Origin: Candidatus Hydrogenedentes bacterium ADurb.Bin170 | Lineage (GTDB): Bacteria; Hydrogenedentota; Hydrogenedentia; Hydrogenedentales; CAITNO01 | Length of the DNA: 64,000 nucleotides | Assembly: GCA_002070275.1 (NCBI GenBank) | Contig: MWCY01000010.1 | Location: forward strand, 9,122-73,121 | Direction of reading: 5' to 3' | Shown here: in pieces, positions 9,498-23,128 of the stretch | Layout: the number at the start of each line of letters is the position of its first letter | How positions within the stretch are numbered: position 1 is the stretch's first letter | The notes under the pieces: generated by a model | Seen by the model: only the letters and a program-made list of their open reading frames with translations | Database searches by the model: none | What the model was told of the DNA's origin: nothing | Program-made: the position numbers and the translations under genes

Positions 9498-11393
9498 TCA
9501 TGTGCTCAGGATAATCGAAGCAATACTCAGATAAATTACCACGCCGAGAATATCCGCCAGAGAGGTAACCAGCGGTCCGCTTGCCACGGCGGGGTCGACC
9601 TTAAACCGACGCAGCACGAAGGGAAGCAGCATGCCCAGCATGCTGCTGAGGATGACAATGGAGACCATGGCGAGGGCGGCAACGACGGCGATAAGCGCCC
9701 CTGAACGCCACCATGCCACCGCAAAGACAGCCACCGACATGGACAGCCCCAGGGCGGAGGCGACCAATGCCTCGCGCCAGAACACACGGGCAAAGTCTTT
9801 CAGCGATAACTCGCCCAGTGCCATACTTCGAATGACCAGCGTTGCCGACTGCGCTCCGGCATTGCCGCCGCTGTCTATCAGAAGAGGCAGAAAAAACACC
9901 AGTGCCATATAGACTCCGAGCAGTTCTTCAAAATGGGCAATGCCCGCACCGGAAAAAATATTGACAAATACGAGCGCAATCAGCCACGGAAGCCGGCTGC
10001 GGTAGAGCATAATCAGCGGTGTCTTCAGATAGCCCACCGACAGAGGACGGATGGCGCCTGCCTTGTGGAAGTCTTCCGTCGCCTCTTCTTCTGCCACGTC
10101 CAGAATATCGTCGTTGGTGACGATTCCCAGCAGCACGCCTTCGGAGTCAATGACGGGCAGGGCGTACACGTCGTACTTCTTAAAAATCAGCACAGCCTCT
10201 TCCCGGTCCTGAATGGAATGGAGCGCCACATAATTTTTGTCCATCAGCACGGAAACGCGCAGTGCCGGATCGGCAAGGATCAGTTGGCGCAGGCGCAATT
10301 CTCCGACCAGCGCGCCGCTGTCGTCGATGACATAAATGGTCATGACCGTTTCCGAGTCGCTGCCTGCCGCCCGGATATGCTCCATTGTTTTTGCTATCGT
10401 CCAGTTTTCCTGGGCGGAAACATAGCCGCTGGACATGAGGCGGCCCACGCTGTCTTTGGGATAACTCAGCTGGCTGAGCACTTGCTTGCGGTCCGCATCG
10501 CTCAGAAGGGTCAGCAGGCGCTGCGTGACGTTGGCGGGCAATTCCTCAAAAAGAGCTGTCTGGTCGTCGGAAGACAGAGCGGCAAGAACCTGGCGTGTTT
10601 CGTCCTGCGCCATGTTTTTCAGAAGCCCTGTCTGCGACGGATAGTCGATGAGAGAAAAGACTTCATCAGCGAGACTTCTGGGCAGCAGTCGAAATACCAG
10701 CAGCTGATCGGAAGAGTCCAGTGCCGTAATCAGCTCGGCGATTTCCGGCGCCGGCTGGGCGGACAGAAAAATGCGAAGGTCGCGCAAGCGGCGATCTTCC
10801 AGCATTTCCAGAATATCAGGGATCAGTACCTGGCTCAAAAGAGAGGAAGCCACACGGGACGCCGCTTTTCGACCATCTTCAGGGTCTATCCGGCCTTCCA
10901 TGGCGGCGATCCAGGTATTCAGGCGCTCTTTTACCTCGTCCAGATCTTCCAGATTCACCAGTTCATGGTGGTCTTCGTCGGCGGCAATCGCACGGGCAAG
11001 AGAGGAAAGCTCGGTCAAATACTTGTTTCGGGCGGGATAAGGCACATAGTACATCAGAAGCAGATGCACGGGCCATCCGTCCGTATTACCGTATTCGATG
11101 CCGTCTGGACTCCACCCGACTGCGCAGATCATTTCACCTTCATTGCCGCCCCGGGCATGAGGGCAGGCGATACCGTAGCCCAGGTAGGCTGTGGACTGTG
11201 ACTCATAGTGCAGAATGCTGTCGATGATGCTGGGGACAGCAGCGTCCCCGTCCCGGGCGCTTTCAAGACTTTCCGCCAGAATCCTGAGAGCCTCCTCTTT
11301 GTTGCAGAGGGGAAGCTCAATCACGCGGCCTTCTTCGATTGCCTGCTGGATGAGGCTGGAAGAGGGCGCGGCTGTCTGAGCGTTAATCGACAT
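9498..11393 (-). CDS. mgtE: Magnesium channel MgtE with an extra N-terminal PTS EIIA type-2 (PtsN-like) domain
   Basis: Residues 12-165 align by eye with E. coli PtsN (GYGIACPHARG vs GNGIAIPHGK; PVHLLLMYYVP vs PVDLLFALLVP). The rest is MgtE_N, a CBS pair, and the TM domain with LIDSGGNAGAQS. Confidence 0.85.
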   Translation of the reverse strand: MSINAQTAAPSSSLIQQAIEEGRVIELPLCNKEEALRILAESLESARDGDAAVPSIIDSILHYESQSTAYLGYGIACPHARGGNEGEMICAVGWSPDGIEYGNTDGWPVHLLLMYYVPYPARNKYLTELSSLARAIAADEDHHELVNLEDLDEVKERLNTWIAAMEGRIDPEDGRKAASRVASSLLSQVLIPDILEMLEDRRLRDLRIFLSAQPAPEIAELITALDSSDQLLVFRLLPRSLADEVFSLIDYPSQTGLLKNMAQDETRQVLAALSSDDQTALFEELPANVTQRLLTLLSDADRKQVLSQLSYPKDSVGRLMSSGYVSAQENWTIAKTMEHIRAAGSDSETVMTIYVIDDSGALVGELRLRQLILADPALRVSVLMDKNYVALHSIQDREEAVLIFKKYDVYALPVIDSEGVLLGIVTNDDILDVAEEEATEDFHKAGAIRPLSVGYLKTPLIMLYRSRLPWLIALVFVNIFSGAGIAHFEELLGVYMALVFFLPLLIDSGGNAGAQSATLVIRSMALGELSLKDFARVFWREALVASALGLSMSVAVFAVAWWRSGALIAVVAALAMVSIVILSSMLGMLLPFVLRRFKVDPAVASGPLVTSLADILGVVIYLSIASIILST

Positions 11394-14876: not shown

Positions 14877-14951
14877 AATGCTTTTATTTTGCTGAGCCAC
14901 AGATAATCCCTTCTGGAAATGTTTCGAACGGAAAACTGCAAATGAGTTTTT

Positions 14952-15475
14952 TGATATGGTATCACTCTTGTCCAAATCAGCTTTTCTTGGACAAGCTTGT
15001 TCTGTGTGCTGACACCTGTTTCCATGTACTGAGCACCCGGGAAAGCCTGTCTTTATGGCATTTTGGGGCTGTAGAATGGTCTTGCATAGGCCTTCGCAAT
15101 TTGGACAGACAAATGCAATGATCAGCAACTCTGATCCTGAAACCTCGATAATGAAGACAAAAGTCTGGCCGAAATGCCAATGAATTCATCTATGTGGATT
15201 CGATGGTGGCCTTAATTTGGACACCAATGATATGGTATATAAGAAATAGTAGTAAATAGATAATATTCTTTAAAAAACGAACAATTTACGGATTTACTTT
15301 CCTGATGACGAATCTACAATTCAGGCTTTTCTGCTAAATTGTTCTGATTATGATAACATGTTCTTGTTTTCTGGAAAGGCTGAGCAGTAATAGTCTACAT
15401 TTAGAGTAAATTCGGAAACCGAAAGATGGTTTTTGAAAACAGAAGTTTGTAAGCATTTAATTTTGAGGTTGGACA
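14952..15475. repeat. Cluster of short motifs: five TTGGACA cores (three extend to AATTTGGACA) and two TGATATGGTAT
   Basis: TTGGACA occurs at 14968-14977 (reverse orientation), 14987-14995, 15098-15107, 15214-15223 and 15469-15475. TGATATGGTAT occurs at 14952-14962 and 15228-15238. CTTGTCCAA/TTGGACAAG form a 9-bp inverted repeat at 14967-14995. Confidence 0.6.
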
Positions 15476-15479
15476 GAAA

Positions 15480-18400
15480 ATGACAAAGAAGAGTGAGAAC
15501 CAAGATCAGGAAAAAGTACAGCAACTCTTAAAGTATCTTTTGGAGGTGATGAAGCTCCGCTCAGCAGTGATTTATGACCTTACTTCCTATGAGGCTGTCT
15601 TGTGGATTTCAGATATTCCAAAAGAAAAAGGATGTTCTACAACATTATGGTCTGCGTCACCGAACAATGAAACGGACATTTGCATCGAAATAGAAAAGCA
15701 GGAAGAGCCTGCGATGCCAGCCGTACCAGCATCATGTGAAAACTGGATTAATTCCACTGAGCTCCAGGATAAAACAACCGTGCCAGAACTAATGCCGAAA
15801 ATCATTCAAGAACAACCTAACCCGAATTGGACAGAAGATTCTGACGAGGAACAAACGGTATACAAAACTTTATATCTTGGCGAGCACGCCAAAATACAGG
15901 AAGATTGGGAGAGATATGTTGAAGGCTCCTGGAAAGAATGGCGTGAAAAACATAACCGTTGGGAAGCTGGGTTTAAAATTTATTCAATGCTTTTTAAAAT
16001 ACATCAGGATCAATTAAGACTGGGAGAAGAGCATGAACTTGTTTTGGGTTATGGTCTGCTCCTTTGGGTCAATCCACAAGAGAAAAGAATTTACAGGCAT
16101 TTAGCAGTGGCTAATGTTTCTCTTGAATTTGATACAGCCCGCGCAAAATTTTCAGTGCGCACCCACCACGAAGGCGCAAAATTAAGAGCTGAACTAGAAA
16201 TGCTTGGTCAGTCCATTGATTCTGCCGAAATAAAAAAAGCTGAAATGCTATTCAGTGATGCGGGTGATGACCTCTCTGATCATACAACGATTTTTTCAGC
16301 AGTCAAGGGGCTGGGTGAGGCTTTGTCTGCGCAGTGCAGAATTGATGAAAGTTTTGATAGAGGGAAGGAGAAGCCTTCTAATACTCCCAAAATTATTTGG
16401 AGTCCAGCCCTAATACTTCGAAAACACTCTACCAAAGGGATAAGTGAAGCTCTTCAAAGCATGATGAAAAAAATTGAACTTGACACCACGCTTCCAAGTG
16501 GCTTGGCCGCCTTAGCAGAGCTTGACCAATCAAATAACATTGAAGTACGACAATCCTCTGATAACACTGCCTCGCCAGAGACTAGTGAAATTTTCTTTCC
16601 GTTGCAGGCGAATACAGAACAATTTCAAATTATCAAAAAACTACAGCACTCAAGCGGGCTTTTGGTTCAAGGGCCGCCAGGAACAGGAAAGTCTCATACA
16701 ATAGCAAACCTAATCTGTCACCTTTTGGCCACAGGCCAGAAACTTTTGATTACTGCCAAGAAAGCCCATGCACTTGAAGTGCTTTATAAAAAGATACCGA
16801 AGGACTTGCGTCCTCTTAATATAAATTTATTGGGAGGTGGTCTTAGCGAACGTCAATCTCTTGAAACCAGTGTCTCGTGTATCATTGCACGAAAGAGCGC
16901 ATGGAATTTTGAAAAAGAACAAAAGAAGATCGCTGAATTGCGAGAAGAGTTAAAAAAAGCGCGCGAGGAACAAGAGAAAATTAGAAAACGCATGGAAGCA
17001 GTGCGAATGTCGGAGACTAACAGCGACAACCGTTTAGGTGATGGAAGATATAGGGGTGCCGCTGCTAGTATCACAAGGAAAGTTACTGAAGAAAAAGAGT
17101 ATTTTAACTGGTTTGTCGATAAAGTACCTTTAGAGGGACTGTGCCCTTTGCAGACAGAGCAGTTGTCGGATCTCCTGCGTTCTTTTAAATTTCTACAATC
17201 ATTGCCGGAAGAAAAGAAAAAGGAATTGCATCAGTTTCTGCCGAATGATCTGCAGAGCGTTGACACTTGCATCGCATTTTTTGAAGAAGAAAAAAAACTG
17301 GCAGAGCAGGAGATGTCTTTAGAAGGGAAAGTGCGAAGTGACTCGGCGCACGCACTGTCCTTAAACGCAAAAGAGTTGGTTCAGAAGATCGTGGGATGCT
17401 GTCAGAAAATTGAGAGTGTTTCAGGGGCAATTAAGCAAGCCATGCCGTGGCTTAAGAAAGAGTTGCCGAATATTTTGGCAGGTACAGATAATTTCTGGCC
17501 AAGACTCTTAAAAGAAACGGAAAAACGCGACCGAATCCCTGAAAACAACAGAAGATTTGTCGATAGGTGTAGTCTGGATTATCCGGGATCTAAGAGCCGG
17601 AGTCTGGGTCACGATGCCAAAAAGTTGCTTGAGCACCTCAAACAAGGGAAAAAACTTAAGTTTTTGGGAATTCCTCATCGGGCAATTAAAGAGCAAATAT
17701 ATATAACAAAATCGGTGATACTCAACGGAAAACCCTGCATTACGACAGAAGATCTTCAAAAGTTAATTGGGCTACTTAACATTAAACATATTTACAGTTC
17801 TATCTGGGCGCAATGGTCTGGGATTTTAGAAGCACCGTCGAGTTCTTTAGAGAATCAGGAAAGAATTCTTGCTTCTGCTTATGAAAACTTAAAGACTGCT
17901 TTACATTACAAACAAAGCATAGACGCTTTAAAAAAACTAGTGCCACCTGAGTTGAGCTCTTCCTTGCCTGATTGGTGTACTCCTGAAGAGGTTGAAGTTT
18001 TTTCCTCTTCCTGTAAGATGGCTTTAGTGCAGATACAAAAGAAAGAAGTTGTAAAAAAGATTCAAATAATAGAAGCTCAAATTTCTAAATATTTATTGCA
18101 AGAAAATGTTCACCACCTTTTAAAAGACCTTAAAGCGTCCATTCAAGAGCGAGATCAATTGCGGCTGACTTATGCTCTCGAGAAAATAGGAGAGGCACAG
18201 AGGGAAAAGAGTAAATATGCCTCGGCAATAGAAAAGATTGATAGCCTTAAAAGGGATTTGCCCGTATTTACTCAGTCGCTTAAAGCAACTTTGAGCGAGG
18301 AGGTCTGGGAACAACGCATGGAATCGCTTTGTGATGCCTGGTATTGGAGGCAGGCGTATGATTGGATTTTTGAGTTCACAAAAGGTGACAGCTTTCAGGA

Positions 18401-20390
18401 ATTAAATGATGAATTTAAAAAGAAAGAAGAGCTCATTCACCGAAGAATCGAACAACTGGCTTCTTCCTATGCCTGGTCTTATTGCTGTGAAAATCTAAAA
18501 GAAAAGCATAGAAAGCACATGATCTCATGGCAAGGAGCGATGAAAAAACTCGGCAAAGGGACTGGAAAAAATGCTCCTATACACAGACGTGCTGCGCAGG
18601 AACATCTGGATCAATGCCGTGCCGCCATTCCTTCCTGGATTATGCCTCTTGATCGTGTCTGGGATACTATCGCTCCTGAGGCAGCTATGTTTGATGTGGT
18701 GATTATCGACGAAGCCTCTCAATGCGGCTTAGATGCTTTGCCGTTGCTTTATTTGGGTAAAAAAATATTGATTGTTGGGGATGATAAACAAATTAGCCCT
18801 TACAGTGTAGGGGTCAACGAACCAGACGTGCAGTCTTTGATGCAACTTCACCTTAAAGATTTTGCGCATCGCGATTCTTTTCGCATTGACAGCAGTTTAT
18901 TTGACCATGGCAATAGACTTTATCCAAATCGAATATCACTGCGTGAACATTTTCGCTGTATGCCTGAAATTATTGAATTCAGCAATCAGTTGTGTTACCA
19001 GAGTTCTTCTCTCATTCCTTTAAGGCAATACGGGGCAGATCGTCTGGTACCTTTGAAATCGGTCTATGTTAATGATGGTTTACGAGAGGGACGCGATGCC
19101 GGTGTTTACAATGAGAATGAAGCTCAAGCCGTGGCTGATTGTATCAAAGAGATGTGTCGTGACGATAAGTACAAAGGGAAGACCATGGGGGTTATCGTTT
19201 TACAGGGTCAGGCCCAGGGTCAGTTAATACAGGATAAGCTATTTAAAATGCTGGGTGCCGAAGAGATAGAACGGCGAAAATTGCTCTGCGGAAATCCTTA
19301 CAGTTTCCAGGGCGATGAACGGGATATAATCTTTCTCTCCCTTGTTGCGGCTCGTAATCAAACAATTGGTTCTCTTACCACAGAAGTATATATCCGAAGT
19401 TTTAATGTCGCAGCCAGCCGTGCTAAAGATATGATGCTGCTTTTCCACTCTGTAAAGCCTGAAGACTTAAGCTCTTTAGATCTTCGACGTAAGTTGCTCG
19501 AGTATTTTTTAAATCCAACAATCCGGTCTGTTGCAGGGATTCAGTTGCACGTACTGGAAAAACAAGCAAAAGATACGAACCGCAGCATTGCTAAAGCACC
19601 GGATCCTTTTGATAGTTGGTTTGAGGTCGATGTGGCCTTGGAACTGCTGCGGAAAAATTACAGTGTTGTCCCGCAGTTCCCTGTGGCCGGAAAGAAAATT
19701 GACCTTGTGGTTCAAGGGGGCAAAGCTGCTCTTGCCGTTGAATGTGACGGAGACCACTGGCATGGTCCGGAAAAATATGAGGAAGATATGGGGCGCCAAA
19801 GAATTCTAGAGCGCTGCGGATGGGAATTTTTCCGAATCAGAGCGTCTCTTTTTTATTTTGATAAAGAACTTGCTCTAGAACGCTTGTGGCCTCTGTTAGA
19901 GGAACGGCAAATTTTCCCTCTGAAAGCTGGTGAAGAGGCAGAGCAATCTGTGGGAAAAAATATGTACTTGGAATCAGGGAGAGCGGAAAAGGAAAAATCT
20001 TCCAAACAGAAAAGCTTATATCCTGAAGAGGTGGACTCGTGCATCAGGGCGGTGTCGGTTACACCTGTCACTAAAAGTGAAAATGATCAGCCTGTAGATG
20101 AGCAAGGCGCTGTTTTTGAGAAAAAGGGTATTTTAAAGATATCGGACATCAGTAAAGAAGATCTGGAATCATGTATTTTGTATATTGGCAAACTGCGACC
20201 CAACAACACGTGTAAACTGGATGACGTTGTGACTCTTGTATTAAAAGAGTTTAGGATCAAAACTTCAGGGGAGCCTAGAAAGAAATTTGACGCACGGGTG
20301 AAAAAAATGGTGAGAAATCTTGAAGAAAGGGGCTTGGTAGAAATATACCATGCAAAAAACAAGAGGGTGCGTTTCCTTTATCCTGTATAA
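15480..20390 (+). CDS. 1636-aa SF1B (Upf1/DNA2-type, AAA_11/AAA_12-like) helicase fused to a C-terminal DUF559/Vsr-type PD-(D/E)xK endonuclease
   Basis: The Walker A is GPPGTGKS (nt 16671-16694). Further helicase motifs are VVIIDEASQ (D at nt 18708), LIVGDDKQISP, HFRCMPEIIEFSN, SFQGDERDIIFLSLV and FNVAASRAKD. The nuclease region is IDLVV..AVECDGDHWHG..RILERCGWEFFRIR. The GAGG SD lies 11 nt upstream. The gene is AT-rich relative to its flanks. Confidence 0.85.
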   Translation: MTKKSENQDQEKVQQLLKYLLEVMKLRSAVIYDLTSYEAVLWISDIPKEKGCSTTLWSASPNNETDICIEIEKQEEPAMPAVPASCENWINSTELQDKTTVPELMPKIIQEQPNPNWTEDSDEEQTVYKTLYLGEHAKIQEDWERYVEGSWKEWREKHNRWEAGFKIYSMLFKIHQDQLRLGEEHELVLGYGLLLWVNPQEKRIYRHLAVANVSLEFDTARAKFSVRTHHEGAKLRAELEMLGQSIDSAEIKKAEMLFSDAGDDLSDHTTIFSAVKGLGEALSAQCRIDESFDRGKEKPSNTPKIIWSPALILRKHSTKGISEALQSMMKKIELDTTLPSGLAALAELDQSNNIEVRQSSDNTASPETSEIFFPLQANTEQFQIIKKLQHSSGLLVQGPPGTGKSHTIANLICHLLATGQKLLITAKKAHALEVLYKKIPKDLRPLNINLLGGGLSERQSLETSVSCIIARKSAWNFEKEQKKIAELREELKKAREEQEKIRKRMEAVRMSETNSDNRLGDGRYRGAAASITRKVTEEKEYFNWFVDKVPLEGLCPLQTEQLSDLLRSFKFLQSLPEEKKKELHQFLPNDLQSVDTCIAFFEEEKKLAEQEMSLEGKVRSDSAHALSLNAKELVQKIVGCCQKIESVSGAIKQAMPWLKKELPNILAGTDNFWPRLLKETEKRDRIPENNRRFVDRCSLDYPGSKSRSLGHDAKKLLEHLKQGKKLKFLGIPHRAIKEQIYITKSVILNGKPCITTEDLQKLIGLLNIKHIYSSIWAQWSGILEAPSSSLENQERILASAYENLKTALHYKQSIDALKKLVPPELSSSLPDWCTPEEVEVFSSSCKMALVQIQKKEVVKKIQIIEAQISKYLLQENVHHLLKDLKASIQERDQLRLTYALEKIGEAQREKSKYASAIEKIDSLKRDLPVFTQSLKATLSEEVWEQRMESLCDAWYWRQAYDWIFEFTKGDSFQELNDEFKKKEELIHRRIEQLASSYAWSYCCENLKEKHRKHMISWQGAMKKLGKGTGKNAPIHRRAAQEHLDQCRAAIPSWIMPLDRVWDTIAPEAAMFDVVIIDEASQCGLDALPLLYLGKKILIVGDDKQISPYSVGVNEPDVQSLMQLHLKDFAHRDSFRIDSSLFDHGNRLYPNRISLREHFRCMPEIIEFSNQLCYQSSSLIPLRQYGADRLVPLKSVYVNDGLREGRDAGVYNENEAQAVADCIKEMCRDDKYKGKTMGVIVLQGQAQGQLIQDKLFKMLGAEEIERRKLLCGNPYSFQGDERDIIFLSLVAARNQTIGSLTTEVYIRSFNVAASRAKDMMLLFHSVKPEDLSSLDLRRKLLEYFLNPTIRSVAGIQLHVLEKQAKDTNRSIAKAPDPFDSWFEVDVALELLRKNYSVVPQFPVAGKKIDLVVQGGKAALAVECDGDHWHGPEKYEEDMGRQRILERCGWEFFRIRASLFYFDKELALERLWPLLEERQIFPLKAGEEAEQSVGKNMYLESGRAEKEKSSKQKSLYPEEVDSCIRAVSVTPVTKSENDQPVDEQGAVFEKKGILKISDISKEDLESCILYIGKLRPNNTCKLDDVVTLVLKEFRIKTSGEPRKKFDARVKKMVRNLEERGLVEIYHAKNKRVRFLYPV

Positions 20391-20636
20391 TTTGTGTTGA
20401 TTAGATGAGGGTTTTACACCACAGTCTTTACCTGTTTTCCTCATTTTCTCTGTCAATCCTAAAAACAGCGGTATCGCCACAATTTTGTTCTTTTGCATCG
20501 CTATTGGTAAGGATAATGCTTTTACTGCACCATATGGCTTTCCCGGAAGATTTTTCTGCCGGGGATATTTATGGTAAAATGAGCAGACGGGGGGTTCACT
20601 TTTGCTGTGAAAGCCAGTGAGAGGTGTATAGTGCCC

Positions 20637-20645
20637 TGTTATACT
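20637..20645 (+). promoter_or_regulatory. Extended -10 element TGTTATACT upstream of rnd
   Basis: It matches the recurring TGnTATACT motif in this window and lies 18 nt before the rnd ATG. Confidence 0.35.
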
Positions 20646-20662
20646 GATCTGCGTCGTGATTT

Positions 20663-21856
20663 ATGGAGCGTTGTGTTTTGGTGTCCTCCGGAAAAGATCC
20701 CTACATACTGATTACAAACCGCCGTTCCTGGGAGCGTTGTCTTAAGGAACTGCAAGAAGCGCCCCGAATCGCCGTTGATCTGGAGGCGAACGGTCTTTAT
20801 GCCTATCGCGAAAAGATCTGCCTGATCCAGATTTCCACGGACAGAAACCATTTTATCGTGGATCCTCTTGCCGGTTTTTCACTGGAAGGGCTGAAACCGA
20901 TTTTTGCCGATGAGTCTGTCGAAAAGGTTTTTCATGCAGTAGACTATGATCTTACGCTTCTTCAGGGGCTATACCGGTGGAAAGTCCGTGGTTTATTCGA
21001 TACGATGCGTGCGGCGGAAATTCTGGGGCACACCAGTATCGGGCTTGCGTCGCTGCTTGGGTCGTTTTATGGTCTTACCCTGAGCAAGAAATACCAGAAA
21101 GCCAACTGGGGTCTCCGCCCGCTTTCCCGTGAACATCTCCTTTATGCCTACAATGATACCTGTCATCTGCTTCGGCTTCGCGATGATCTGGCAACGCATC
21201 TGGTCAGAGAAAACCTGATGGAAGAGGCGCGCGAGGCTTTTGAGCAGGTTTGTCACATGCCACCTGCCATGCGTGTATTTGACCCGGATCACTTCTGGAA
21301 AATACCGGGGGCTCTCCACCTGGACGACCCCCTTCCCGCCGTGCTGAAAGCACTCTTTATCTTTCGTGAATCGGAAGCGCAAAAACAGGATGTGCCCTCC
21401 TTTAAAATTATGTCGAACAAAATGCTTGCGGGCATTATCCAGCAGGTGGGCACCTGGCATAAGACGGGTGTTCGTGAACTGGTGCCGGATGCATGCATTC
21501 CGCTGAAACTGCTGGAGCGGTACAGAGCCGTTCTGATGAAGACCATCCAGGCGGCGCTGTTACATCTGCCGCCCCCACGCATCTCCTGTCAGAGCATCCA
21601 CACCAACGGTTTCTGGCAGCGGCTTGAAAAGCTGAAAGAATGGCGCAAGAATGAGGCAGACGGGCAGGGGGTGCAGTCGAACGTGGTTCTTACCCGAGCG
21701 GCAATGACCGAAATTGCGGAGCGTAACCCTGGTACACTTCAGGCCTTATCCATGCTAAAATTGTTGGGCCCGGTTTGCTGTCGCAAGTATGGTCCGGATA
21801 TTCTCGAGGTGCTCAGATCCGCATCGGAAGAGGCACCTTCGAACAAGCAGACGTAA
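20663..21856 (+). CDS. rnd: Ribonuclease D (DEDDy 3'-5' exonuclease plus HRDC)
   Basis: Exo I is AVDLEANGL, Exo II is FHAVDYDL, and Exo III is YAYNDTCHL. The C-terminus is HRDC-like. Confidence 0.8.
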   Translation: MERCVLVSSGKDPYILITNRRSWERCLKELQEAPRIAVDLEANGLYAYREKICLIQISTDRNHFIVDPLAGFSLEGLKPIFADESVEKVFHAVDYDLTLLQGLYRWKVRGLFDTMRAAEILGHTSIGLASLLGSFYGLTLSKKYQKANWGLRPLSREHLLYAYNDTCHLLRLRDDLATHLVRENLMEEAREAFEQVCHMPPAMRVFDPDHFWKIPGALHLDDPLPAVLKALFIFRESEAQKQDVPSFKIMSNKMLAGIIQQVGTWHKTGVRELVPDACIPLKLLERYRAVLMKTIQAALLHLPPPRISCQSIHTNGFWQRLEKLKEWRKNEADGQGVQSNVVLTRAAMTEIAERNPGTLQALSMLKLLGPVCCRKYGPDILEVLRSASEEAPSNKQT

Positions 21857-21871
21857 AGGAAGAGTATAGAC

Positions 21872-23128
21872 ATGCCCTTTAGAAAGGGAAGCGCTACGAA
21901 CAGAGGCCGTCTTATCAGCCGAATAGCTCTGGTACAGAAGGTGGAGTGGTCGCTTGTAGCGGTGCGCTATCTTGCGTGTATCGCCTGCGGCGCGTATGCT
22001 GTAATGGACAGCGGCCCGGGGATCGTCAGGGCTGTCGCTCTTTTCTGCCTGATTGCCTTGCTGCATAACGGCTTTGTCCACTGGGTGATGTACCGCAAAC
22101 AGTATAAGCTCTTTACATCGCTGTTGAATTTTTTCATCTATCTGGTTTTCTGCTGCGTGCTCATCGGCATGACAGGCGGTTCCGCCAGTTATTTTGCGCC
22201 ATTGCTTCTCTTTGTCATAGTGGGCTATCACATTTACAAGCCGCAGTCGGGCAATACGCTATGGGTTACACTGCTGGTCTGTGCGGCCTATTCCTTTACG
22301 ATTGTGCTGAGCTGGTTTACCACGGGCTTTAACTGGCTGCATCTGCCGGTATATGTGAATCTGGCGTTCATTGCGACCAGTGGCGGTGTTATGGGCGTTC
22401 TTTCGCAGCTGCTTTATGTTCTTGAAAAAGAGACGCAGCACCATGCGGCGGCGCTTGAAAGTTCGGAAGAAACGCTGCGTGCCATTCTGAACCATACCGC
22501 GCATCCGATAGTGGTTTATGATGACAATGAGCTGATTACGGAAGTCAACGACAGTGCCTGTAATTTTTTGAGCATGTCGCGCCTGAATATGATCGGTATG
22601 CGCTTTCAGAGTTTTCTGTTTGATGATGGTTCACTGGGCGAGGCACTTCTGGAACTCAAACAGTCGGGATCCCTTTTTCAGGAAATGCTTATTGTGCCTT
22701 CCCACGGTTCGGAGCGTGCGGTTTTAATGCACATTCATTCTTTTCTCGGAGAAAAGAAACGGTTTTTTGTGGCGCTTTTCCATGATATAACCGAGCAGAA
22801 AGAGTTGAACGAAACGCACCGCATAGCCAAACAGCGGCTGGAAGAGGCCAACCGTGAACTTCACCGTGCGGCGGAAATACGCGATGCCTTCTATACATCC
22901 GTTGCCAACCAGCTGCGCTCCCCTCTTGCCGCCATGCTCGGGTACATAGACATGCTGCTGGAAGAGCACCTCGGCACGATCAATCCCGAACAGCGTGAGG
23001 CTTTGTACAGCTGCCGTCGCAGCCTTCACCGCATCTTTGAGCGGCTGGACGAGGCGTTCATAGCATACCCCGCAGAGAAAACAGACGAAGATGCGGAATT
23101 ATCAGAAGATCTGGGCTCGGGCATCTGA
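21872..23128 (+). CDS. Membrane PAS protein with a degenerate HisKA (DHp) domain and no ATPase domain (pseudo-histidine kinase)
   Basis: About 6 TM helices, a PAS domain (LRAILNHTAHPIVVYD...FHDITEQKE), then FYTSVANQLRSPLAAMLGY. Asn346 (nt 22907-22909) replaces the phospho-His of SHELRTPL. The ORF stops about 70 aa later. Confidence 0.7.
   Translation: MPFRKGSATNRGRLISRIALVQKVEWSLVAVRYLACIACGAYAVMDSGPGIVRAVALFCLIALLHNGFVHWVMYRKQYKLFTSLLNFFIYLVFCCVLIGMTGGSASYFAPLLLFVIVGYHIYKPQSGNTLWVTLLVCAAYSFTIVLSWFTTGFNWLHLPVYVNLAFIATSGGVMGVLSQLLYVLEKETQHHAAALESSEETLRAILNHTAHPIVVYDDNELITEVNDSACNFLSMSRLNMIGMRFQSFLFDDGSLGEALLELKQSGSLFQEMLIVPSHGSERAVLMHIHSFLGEKKRFFVALFHDITEQKELNETHRIAKQRLEEANRELHRAAEIRDAFYTSVANQLRSPLAAMLGYIDMLLEEHLGTINPEQREALYSCRRSLHRIFERLDEAFIAYPAEKTDEDAELSEDLGSGI

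Follow-up and report, generated by a model that had tools for sequence, protein, structure and literature searches.

What is the function of a gene that joins a helicase to a nuclease in one protein and stands by itself among housekeeping genes, and how did it arrive there? This question is raised by a 4.9-kb gene of Candidatus Hydrogenedentes bacterium ADurb.Bin170, located on contig MWCY01000010.1 within a stretch of 64,000 nucleotides that was analysed as a whole and is referred to below as the window. The gene encodes a Upf1-like helicase of superfamily 1B (SF1B) followed by a Vsr-type nuclease, and a first-pass annotation of the window had singled it out as a candidate for defence or nucleic-acid surveillance. 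Few anti-phage effectors are as poorly understood as helicase-nucleases that consist of a single protein, and no solved structure or mechanistic study of a protein of the Hhe or ProA type was found. In our favoured reading, which we consider probable rather than secure, the gene was acquired horizontally and encodes a self-contained effector of defence against phages or plasmids that acts as a single protein; it would be of the same kind as Hhe and ProA and represent a separate, uncharacterised sister family.

Domain organisation of the helicase-nuclease

The gene is a single open reading frame (ORF) with an ATG start (Table 1), and a frame of 1,636 codons with such profile matches goes far past what chance would produce. 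The Pfam profiles AAA_11 (amino acids (aa) 377-518) and AAA_12 (aa 1137-1321) both scored above their gathering scores, with about 620 residues between the end of the first match and the start of the second. The nuclease profile REase_MTES_1575 matched aa 1381-1471 with 94 bits against a gathering cut-off of 38.2 (E 6e-27). These three families back the helicase and the DUF559/Vsr-type nuclease described in the first-pass annotation; of the other profiles for which it had proposed a search, DUF4011 (PF13195) gave no Pfam match in the protein at E<=0.01, and DUF3320 gave none in its tail. All nine motifs that it had listed lie at the residues given. In the helicase, these are GPPGTGKS (398-405), DEAS (1077-1080), LIVGDDKQISP (1097-1107), HFRCMPEIIEFSN (1157-1169), SFQGDERDIIFLSLV (1275-1289) and FNVAASRAKD (1308-1317). 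In the nuclease, they are IDLVV with D1408 (1407-1411), AVECDGDHWH with E1421 (1419-1428) and RILERCGWEFFRIR (1441-1454).

The Walker A motif, the DEAS motif II, the other SF1 motifs and two RecA-like domains of the Upf1/Sen1 fold identify the helicase as Upf1-like SF1B, while the Pfam match, the invariant D1408 and E1421 and a predicted alpha-beta-beta-beta-alpha-beta core identify the nuclease as Vsr-type. In the family alignment, the Walker A motif is invariant, and no variation was observed at D1408, E1421, C1422, D1423, D1425 and H1428 in 25 family sequences. The most conserved stretch of the family is aa 1047-1325, which covers the rest of domain 1A and domain 2A. Additionally, the N-domain contains conserved motifs of its own, namely GEE(Y/H)ELVLGxGLLxW (182-196), R206-H207, E238 and PALILRK (309-315).

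Structures were predicted with AlphaFold2 (AF2) on an alignment less diverse than one from the locus translations. The N-domain model reached a predicted local distance difference test (pLDDT) score of 84.3 and a predicted template modelling (pTM) score of 0.75. In the N-terminal region, put at roughly 390 aa, the first-pass annotation had recognised no motif; aa 1-376 had no Pfam match, and the N-domain of about 375 aa had no PDB match by profile or by Foldseek of the predicted structure (best E 0.18). In a viral structure library, its one match was a phage 'AAA domain protein' that is itself uncharacterised (E 1e-3). For aa 437-1636, the model had a pLDDT of 73.7 and a pTM of 0.33, and because of this low pTM its domain packing is unreliable. 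Within it, the very large insert in the ATPase core that had been noted in the first pass measures about 570 aa and is predicted to consist nearly entirely of long helices (pLDDT mostly 75-90); Foldseek found no PDB counterpart for it, only weak coiled-coil matches to SMC, Rad50 and dynein. The canonical alpha-beta-beta-beta-alpha-beta core of the nuclease was predicted over aa 1380-1475. At the C-terminus, aa 1559-1632 form an H-E-H-H-E-E unit (pLDDT about 90), a predicted winged-helix topology that agrees with a weak match to the TrmB winged helix-turn-helix (wHTH; E 0.033).

The helicase core most closely resembled Sen1, SETX, Dna2, Upf1 and IGHMBP2 in Foldseek (E 3e-7 to 1e-5), with further matches to Aquarius and ZNFX1, and a phmmer search of the PDB returned Sen1/Upf1-like helicases only (E 5e-11 to 5e-7). 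Such cores belong to cellular enzymes of RNA and DNA, and they raise a first alternative: the protein might be a Sen1/SETX/Dna2-like enzyme of genome or transcript maintenance, acquired horizontally and kept for the benefit of the host, with possible roles in R-loop removal, resolution of transcription-replication conflicts or end processing. The evidence that bears on it comes mainly from the position and the distribution of the gene, and it is weighed with them below.

Insertion into the Hydrogenedentes locus

The first-pass annotation had placed the gene alone in an AT-richer block between an EamA transporter gene and rnd. The composition agrees with this description, with a GC content of 0.423 in the ORF, 0.373 in the spacer before it and 0.422 in the spacer after it, compared with 0.54 in the rest of the window, where no other GC dip was observed across the 64 kb. 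A related species, represented by a metagenomic contig (L097), has MgtE, an AXE1-like gene, EamA, rnd, a PAS kinase and SecA in the same order as the window, with protein identities of 90% for MgtE and SecA, 76% for EamA and 66% for rnd. Its EamA-rnd spacer is 717 bp long and holds no helicase gene. DNA homology between the window and this contig ends at 14885 and restarts at 20665, the spacers themselves being unalignable; therefore, what was gained here (or lost in the relative) measures about 5.8 kb and comprises the gene with its spacers of 579 and 287 bp. Because of the foreign GC content and the same gene order without the helicase in the related species, the gene is a horizontal insertion between housekeeping genes.

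The borders of the insertion showed neither convincing repeats, direct or inverted, nor a target-site duplication; no tRNA gene was found in the window, and the inserted block contains no integrase, transposase or recombinase. Rfam families had zero matches anywhere in the window. In the upstream spacer, promoter-like sites were no more frequent than in shuffled sequences and the only ORFs were of 21-70 aa with no coding sign, and the downstream spacer had no convincing intrinsic terminator.

Within the species, the DNA of the gene is 100% identical in seven independent samples, and every contig that carries the identical rnd also has the helicase-nuclease gene. Two samples (loci L001 and L096) share one allele with three substitutions, R1292C, K1372N and D1378E (window positions 19353, 19595 and 19613), which are all nonsynonymous, with no synonymous change, and fall between domain 2A of the helicase and the nuclease. 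With seven samples identical and two sharing three substitutions, the ratio of nonsynonymous to synonymous substitution rates is not computable. P0001, the stand-in for the window protein in some analyses, differs from it at 3 of 1,636 residues. A gene that stands alone among housekeeping genes, with promoter and terminator signals not above chance, could be left over from a past transfer, no longer active or in decay and without a present function. We regard this as highly improbable, in view of the intact 4.9-kb frame with all helicase and nuclease motifs kept, the identical DNA in the seven samples and the strong conservation across the whole family.

Table 1. Parts of the helicase-nuclease gene and features of its locus (window coordinates).
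Feature	Position	Strand	Basis
Whole ORF, helicase-nuclease, 1,636 aa	15480..20390	+	Pfam, PADLOC and NCBIfam profiles
N-domain, family-specific, alpha/beta, aa 1-375	15480..16604	+	AF2 model, family profile
SF1B RecA-like domain 1A, N-terminal part, aa 377-475	16608..16904	+	Pfam AAA_11, AAA_30, AAA_19
Walker A GPPGTGKS, aa 398-405	16671-16694	+	Motif position checked
Predicted all-alpha insert in domain 1A, ~570 aa (aa ~476-1046)	16905..18617	+	AF2
Rest of domain 1A and domain 2A, aa 1047-1325	18618..19454	+	Pfam AAA_12, motifs, Foldseek
Vsr-type PD-(D/E)xK nuclease (REase_MTES_1575), aa 1381-1471, with D1408 and E1421	19620..19892	+	Pfam
Variable linker, probably disordered, aa 1484-1544	19929..20111	+	pLDDT about 30; gappy and poorly conserved in family
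C-terminal winged-helix-like domain, aa 1559-1632	20154..20375	+	AF2 topology, weak TrmB match
Inserted low-GC block, gene with its own spacers	14886..20664		Homology breaks against L097, GC
Upstream spacer, AT-rich, 579 bp, probable promoter region	14901..15479	+	GC 0.373
GAGG Shine-Dalgarno	15466-15469	+	Sequence reading
Downstream spacer, 287 bp, low GC, before rnd	20391..20677	+	GC 0.422
EamA transporter, 312 aa	13962-14900	-	Flanking gene
RNase D gene (rnd) with HRDC domain	20678-21856		Flanking gene

Family distribution and genomic neighbourhoods

A protein search returned more than 4,231 matches, of which the best 119 are full-length (about 1,600-1,640 aa), 42-47% identical to the window protein and mutually 75% identical (median). 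The main clade (homologues P0002-P0120; loci L002, L006, L007 and L034) includes proteins from the complete genome of Nitrosococcus oceani, a 2.8-Mb contig of Fimbriimonadaceae, Sumerlaeota, Syntrophorhabdaceae and Acidobacteria, and one archaeal metagenome-assembled genome (MAG) carries a main-clade gene on a 14-kb contig. Between phyla, main-clade proteins encoded on contigs of 0.2-3.5 Mb share 65-85% identity across about 1,620 aa, and identity at this level implies recent transfer between phyla. The transfer implied is that of a single 4.9-kb gene without a visible vehicle. The window protein itself lies on a divergent branch, about 44% identical to the main clade, and represents its own 50% cluster; another Hydrogenedentes genome has the main-clade version (P0018). 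In the cluster of the window protein at >=90% identity, all named members are proteins from Hydrogenedentes/Hydrogenedentota MAGs. Relatives are encoded in at least 586 GTDB species genomes.

The N-domain profile retrieved only 12 fragments from a word-indexed protein database, hence an exhaustive search was performed, which yielded 1,875 representatives of 50% identity clusters (1,070 at E<=1e-10). In the best 150 of these, the N-domain was always at or near the N-terminus, in full-length proteins of 1,400-2,030 aa or in fragments. Across 69 full-length loci, the N-domain measures about 375 aa in most, with a few shorter or longer, and 67 of the 69 have 500-518 aa in the region aligned to aa 520-1030. 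The stretch after the nuclease ranges from 0 to 363 aa and its module varies: a LuxR/GerE helix-turn-helix (HTH) in L024 (14459-15547), a GreA/GreB C-terminal domain in P0064 (aa 1522-1593) and L055 (7648-8613), DUF3320 in L029 and L048, or no module at all. The GreA/GreB C-terminal domain is the RNA-polymerase-binding part of Gre factors. Some family copies give the impression of interruption or expansion: in L062 (10001-16770) the match is split by a 473-aa ORF on the opposite strand, in L049 (8483-14242) the region aligned to aa 520-1030 is 826 aa long compared with the usual 510 aa or so, and on a Deinococcus plasmid (CP029776.1, 61236-66763) an IS701 transposase is annotated inside the match.

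The GC content of the family gene minus that of its flanks has a median of -0.033 (55 loci), being lower by more than 0.03 in 29 loci and higher in 6. Matches by tblastn occurred in 450 plasmid records, true Hhe genes among them; clear family members on plasmids are far fewer than 450 and come chiefly from Acinetobacter, Streptomyces, Deinococcus and Variovorax. A phage collection gave one partial match among 50,697 records, and a phage origin was rejected on this basis. The first-pass annotation had reasoned that a defence role would be contradicted by homologues that share one syntenic slot and a native composition. The opposite was found: the homologues are scattered, the composition of the window gene is foreign, and the closest related species has no such gene at the site.

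To sample the neighbourhoods, the two closest ORFs of at least 100 aa on either side of the gene were taken from about 80 loci. At E<=1e-10, 144 + 117 (=261) neighbours of family genes matched 179 + 82 PADLOC families. The full-length matches included Avs4, a type III methyltransferase, GajA, GajB, a type I restriction endonuclease (REase), a CBASS cyclase and HEC-02A, as well as AriA, PD-T4-2 A and B, PDC-S02, IetA, ShosA and PD-Lambda-2. By the same procedure, 138 neighbours of rnd (53 loci) matched 15 PADLOC families, all of them generic cross-matches to dCTP deaminase-like, sigma-54 activator-like and IscS-like models. The contrast is large and places adjacency to defence genes above the control, in a comparison that is aggregate rather than per locus and whose control loci are metagenome contigs that share synteny with one another. 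The enrichment for which the first-pass annotation had proposed to look is therefore present, many loci adjoining defence genes, unlike the rnd control.

On plasmid p3ABAYE of Acinetobacter baumannii AYE (L154; NC_010404.1, 49045-53775), the family gene directly follows brxL of a BREX-1 system, and toxin-antitoxin genes are close by. This copy (ABAYE_RS00355, WP_000653919.1, 1,576 aa) has the family N-domain (E 4e-31) and is annotated only as 'AAA domain-containing protein'. The arrangement next to brxL recurs on many plasmids of about 90 kb in Acinetobacter pittii and A. seifertii. In the Fimbriimonadaceae genome the copy adjoins a PemK toxin gene, and in one further genome it adjoins IS3, HEPN RiboL-PSP and HTH genes. 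No conserved partner gene was found when 627 neighbouring ORFs from 84 loci were clustered; the commonest neighbour cluster occurred in only 5 of the 84 loci, and the family gene is for this reason a single-gene module. The flanking DNA is unrelated between loci, save for about 290 bp upstream of the gene in four loci (L007, L034, L012 and L025; 69-92% identity between pairs) and one species pair that shares more. In L007, this shared segment contains a 51-aa ORF (9799-9954) with an HTH_17 (excisionase/MerR-like) domain, which is possibly a regulator travelling with the gene; an ORF of this kind is missing from the window.

The same mobility could be that of a selfish or element-borne competition gene, involved in the exclusion of rival plasmids, in addiction or in its own spread, with the chromosomal copy of the window as a remnant. 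The identity of 65-85% across phyla and into one archaeal MAG, the copies on conjugative and mobilizable plasmids, the insertion sequence (IS) elements, toxin-antitoxin genes or HTH_17 gene beside some copies, the upstream 290 bp conserved in four loci and the insertion into the window without recognisable integration machinery are all consistent with such a gene. We nevertheless give it only a slim chance, since the inserted block has no terminal repeats, target-site duplication or recombinase, the flanks are otherwise unrelated between loci, no antitoxin-like partner is conserved, and plasmid carriage with wide transfer is equally typical of ordinary defence genes.

The main rival to a defence function is the maintenance enzyme introduced above, which we judge unlikely. 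In addition to the nearest solved cores, it draws support from the members that end in a GreA/GreB C-terminal domain, from the N. oceani copy, which lies between cinA-recA-recX and mutS with no defence neighbours, from the position of the window gene beside an RNase D gene with an HRDC domain and from the identical gene in seven samples of the species. It fits poorly with the patchy, mobile and defence-linked distribution, in which the gene has a different location in every genome, is missing at the syntenic site in the closest related species, has a foreign composition, reaches 65-85% identity between phyla and occurs on plasmids and beside defence genes; furthermore, the best profile matches of the protein are anti-phage models.

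Several of these observations also count against the defence effector that we favour. The closest solved helicases (Sen1, Upf1, SETX and Dna2) are housekeeping RNA or DNA enzymes, the immediate neighbours in the window are housekeeping genes rather than defence genes, as in N. oceani, and the gene appears fixed rather than variable in the species because of its identity in the seven samples. The scores on curated anti-phage models lie far under the cut-offs, and the neighbour comparison is an aggregate one. In the literature, no experimental or functional study of the helicase-nuclease family was found, nor were source papers for ProA and PDC-S37, the matches to 'ProA' being the proline gene or F' proA+B+ genotypes.

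Two other genes of the window deserve mention. The MgtE magnesium transporter (9498-11393, minus strand) carries an N-terminal EIIA-type domain of the phosphotransferase system (PTS; PF00359), which has weak NCBIfam matches to PtsN and FruA EIIA models and which belongs to the MgtE found at 90% identity in L097. This unusual fusion suggests that Mg2+ transport is regulated by a nitrogen-PTS-like signal. Downstream of rnd, a PAS-HisKA protein of 418 aa (21872-23128, plus strand) has no HATPase_c among its Pfam matches and may be a truncated or atypical sensor kinase; its gene is syntenic with rnd even in quite distant relatives.

Proposed mechanism and comparison with known systems

For the favoured defence effector, we infer a DNA substrate, a polarity of translocation and separate roles for the N-domain, insert and tail. 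The Upf1-like SF1B motor would bind single-stranded nucleic acid at a junction or end and would translocate 5'→3' with ATP, using K404 of Walker A and D1077/E1078 of motif II; this direction and the dependence on ATP would follow from family membership only. The tethered Vsr-type PD-(D/E)xK domain, through D1408 and E1421, would cut the DNA that the motor tracks or unwinds. The N-domain and the helical insert of about 570 aa may act as sensor, gate or scaffold and restrain the nuclease from attacking host DNA until an encounter with a structure or protein specific to the invader. The predicted C-terminal winged helix could aid nucleic-acid binding or targeting, and in relatives its position would be swapped for other modules that bind DNA or RNA polymerase.

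A bolder version of this model, which we consider distinctly unlikely, would cast the family as a new kind of immune system in which one protein serves as both sensor and effector. In this version, a sensor or gate N-domain without detectable PDB relative would be combined with an exchangeable C-terminal adaptor (winged helix, LuxR-type HTH, DUF3320, GreA/GreB-like, or nothing) that sets where the motor-nuclease is recruited. Some versions might ride RNA polymerase, in a transcription-coupled surveillance of foreign DNA that would be a bacterial analogue of Sen1, and transfer between bacterial phyla and archaea would involve the bare gene alone.

The existence of the helicase-nuclease family will not surprise a specialist, and its interest lies in being large, tractable and unannotated, its genes currently carrying only the label "AAA domain-containing protein". 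It is conserved enough to model and occurs in many bacterial phyla and one archaeal MAG. A constant N-domain and insert, alongside a C-terminal module that can be exchanged, lend themselves naturally to taking sensing, motor, cutting and targeting apart. Moreover, the p3ABAYE member beside BREX belongs to a culturable and clinically studied host, A. baumannii AYE, which provides an immediate experimental handle.

Among catalogued systems, the best PADLOC profile was PDC-S37 (PDLC05009; E 3e-62, 208.7 bits, a model of 1,550 positions), followed by Hhe (PDLC02194; E 3e-39), MkoC (E 9e-35) and MkoA (E 1e-30). In NCBIfam, ProA (NF058533, 'anti-phage protein ProA') scored 210.5 bits against a cut-off of 1,500, and Hhe (NF042953) scored 139.7 bits against an equivalog cut-off of 2,000, with its best stretch at aa 1051-1513. 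With scores this far beneath the cut-offs, membership of Hhe or ProA was rejected. The likeness to ProA and PDC-S37 takes the form of one unbroken alignment that spans the whole core of helicase, insert and nuclease, with window aa 355-1503 on ProA positions 628-1733 and aa 352-1517 on PDC-S37 positions 269-1379. ProA positions 1-627 and PDC-S37 positions 1-268 are unmatched, and since these first ~630 and ~270 profile positions find no counterpart, the N-terminal region differs from theirs. Six other family members, the Acinetobacter one included, scored 190-245 bits on PDC-S37; therefore, the whole family is a sister group rather than a member.

Hhe is a single-gene anti-phage system with a helicase and a Vsr endonuclease from a published screen (ref. 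25 in bioRxiv 10.1101/2022.06.16.496414); it protects against lambda, T3, T7 and PhiV-1, and the substitution E1731A in its Vsr domain abolishes defence (bioRxiv 10.1101/2022.06.16.496414). It has an N-domain, an SF1 Walker A region, a large insert, the remainder of the helicase, REase_MTES_1575 and a C-terminal tail, in the same order as the window protein. In a true Hhe from a Klebsiella plasmid (1,911 aa, compared with 1,636 aa), DUF4011 occupies aa 30-308, the Walker A region about aa 430-490, the C-terminal part of AAA_11 aa 1378-1420, AAA_12 aa 1455-1637 and MTES_1575 aa 1683-1780. The gap after its Walker A region is about 890 aa, whereas the insert of the window protein is about 570 aa, and only window aa 1022-1453 align with it (27.7% identity). 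Both families have copies on plasmids and copies that neighbour other genes of defence or mobility. Between the two nuclease domains the identity is 34%, and in their alignment E1421 is matched with the glutamate of the Hhe IECDG motif; its equivalence to the essential glutamate of Hhe is only probable, because the numbering of the E. coli Hhe may differ by a few residues from that of the aligned Klebsiella protein.

The DUF4011 match of the true Hhe (1.6e-37) raises the question of whether the N-domain of the window family is a distant version of it. An hhalign comparison with more than 100 DUF4011 sequences was marginal (score 30.2, P=0.0077, probability 5%) and showed one shared motif, ELVLGxGLLxW...RHL against LYLAxGFLEW...APL, with P=0.32 for a reversed control. 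In HMMER, the N-domain profile touched the same Hhe segment without significance. For the tail, hhalign detected no similarity to DUF3320-bearing tails. Proteins of the MTES_1575 type described by Anantharaman et al. in 2013 (PMC3710099) combine an SF-I helicase, a Vsr REase and a wHTH (DUF3320) with HEPN and transglutaminase domains. The window protein resembles them in its SF-I helicase, Vsr-type REase and predicted C-terminal winged helix, but Pfam finds neither HEPN nor transglutaminase in it and its winged helix is not detectably DUF3320.

The C-terminal half of the helicase also matches the Upf1-like helicases of Mokosh, MkoA and MkoC, over aa ~1067-1324 (MkoC aa 1070-1324). The nuclease of type II Mokosh is a PLD enzyme, whereas that of the window protein is of the Vsr-type PD-(D/E)xK kind, and Pfam finds no PLD domain. 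Eukaryotic Sen1/SETX, Upf1, IGHMBP2, Dna2, Aquarius and ZNFX1 share the fold and motifs of the helicase core (Foldseek E 3e-7 to 1e-3 over about 360-450 columns) but are without the helical insert, the N-domain and the Vsr-type nuclease. Dna2 likewise joins a nuclease to this type of helicase, although its nuclease is N-terminal and of another type. The union of a helicase and a nuclease in one protein is a general idea common to Nhi and Hna; Nhi has its nuclease at the N-terminus and Hna is an SF2 helicase, so that domain order and types differ from those of the window protein. PADLOC models named Nhi or Hna gave no match at E<=0.01.

The first-pass annotation had regarded the protein as a different build and as a potential uncharacterised relative of these systems. 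A new build is not supported: the arrangement is that of Hhe, the core aligns end to end with ProA and PDC-S37, and the combination was described in 2013 (PMC3710099). The second part holds insofar as the family is a distant relative of catalogued systems for which no functional study was found. Judged by these profile and alignment comparisons, the helicase-nuclease of the window and its homologues constitute a family of their own, a separate sister of Hhe and of ProA/PDC-S37 rather than a member of either.

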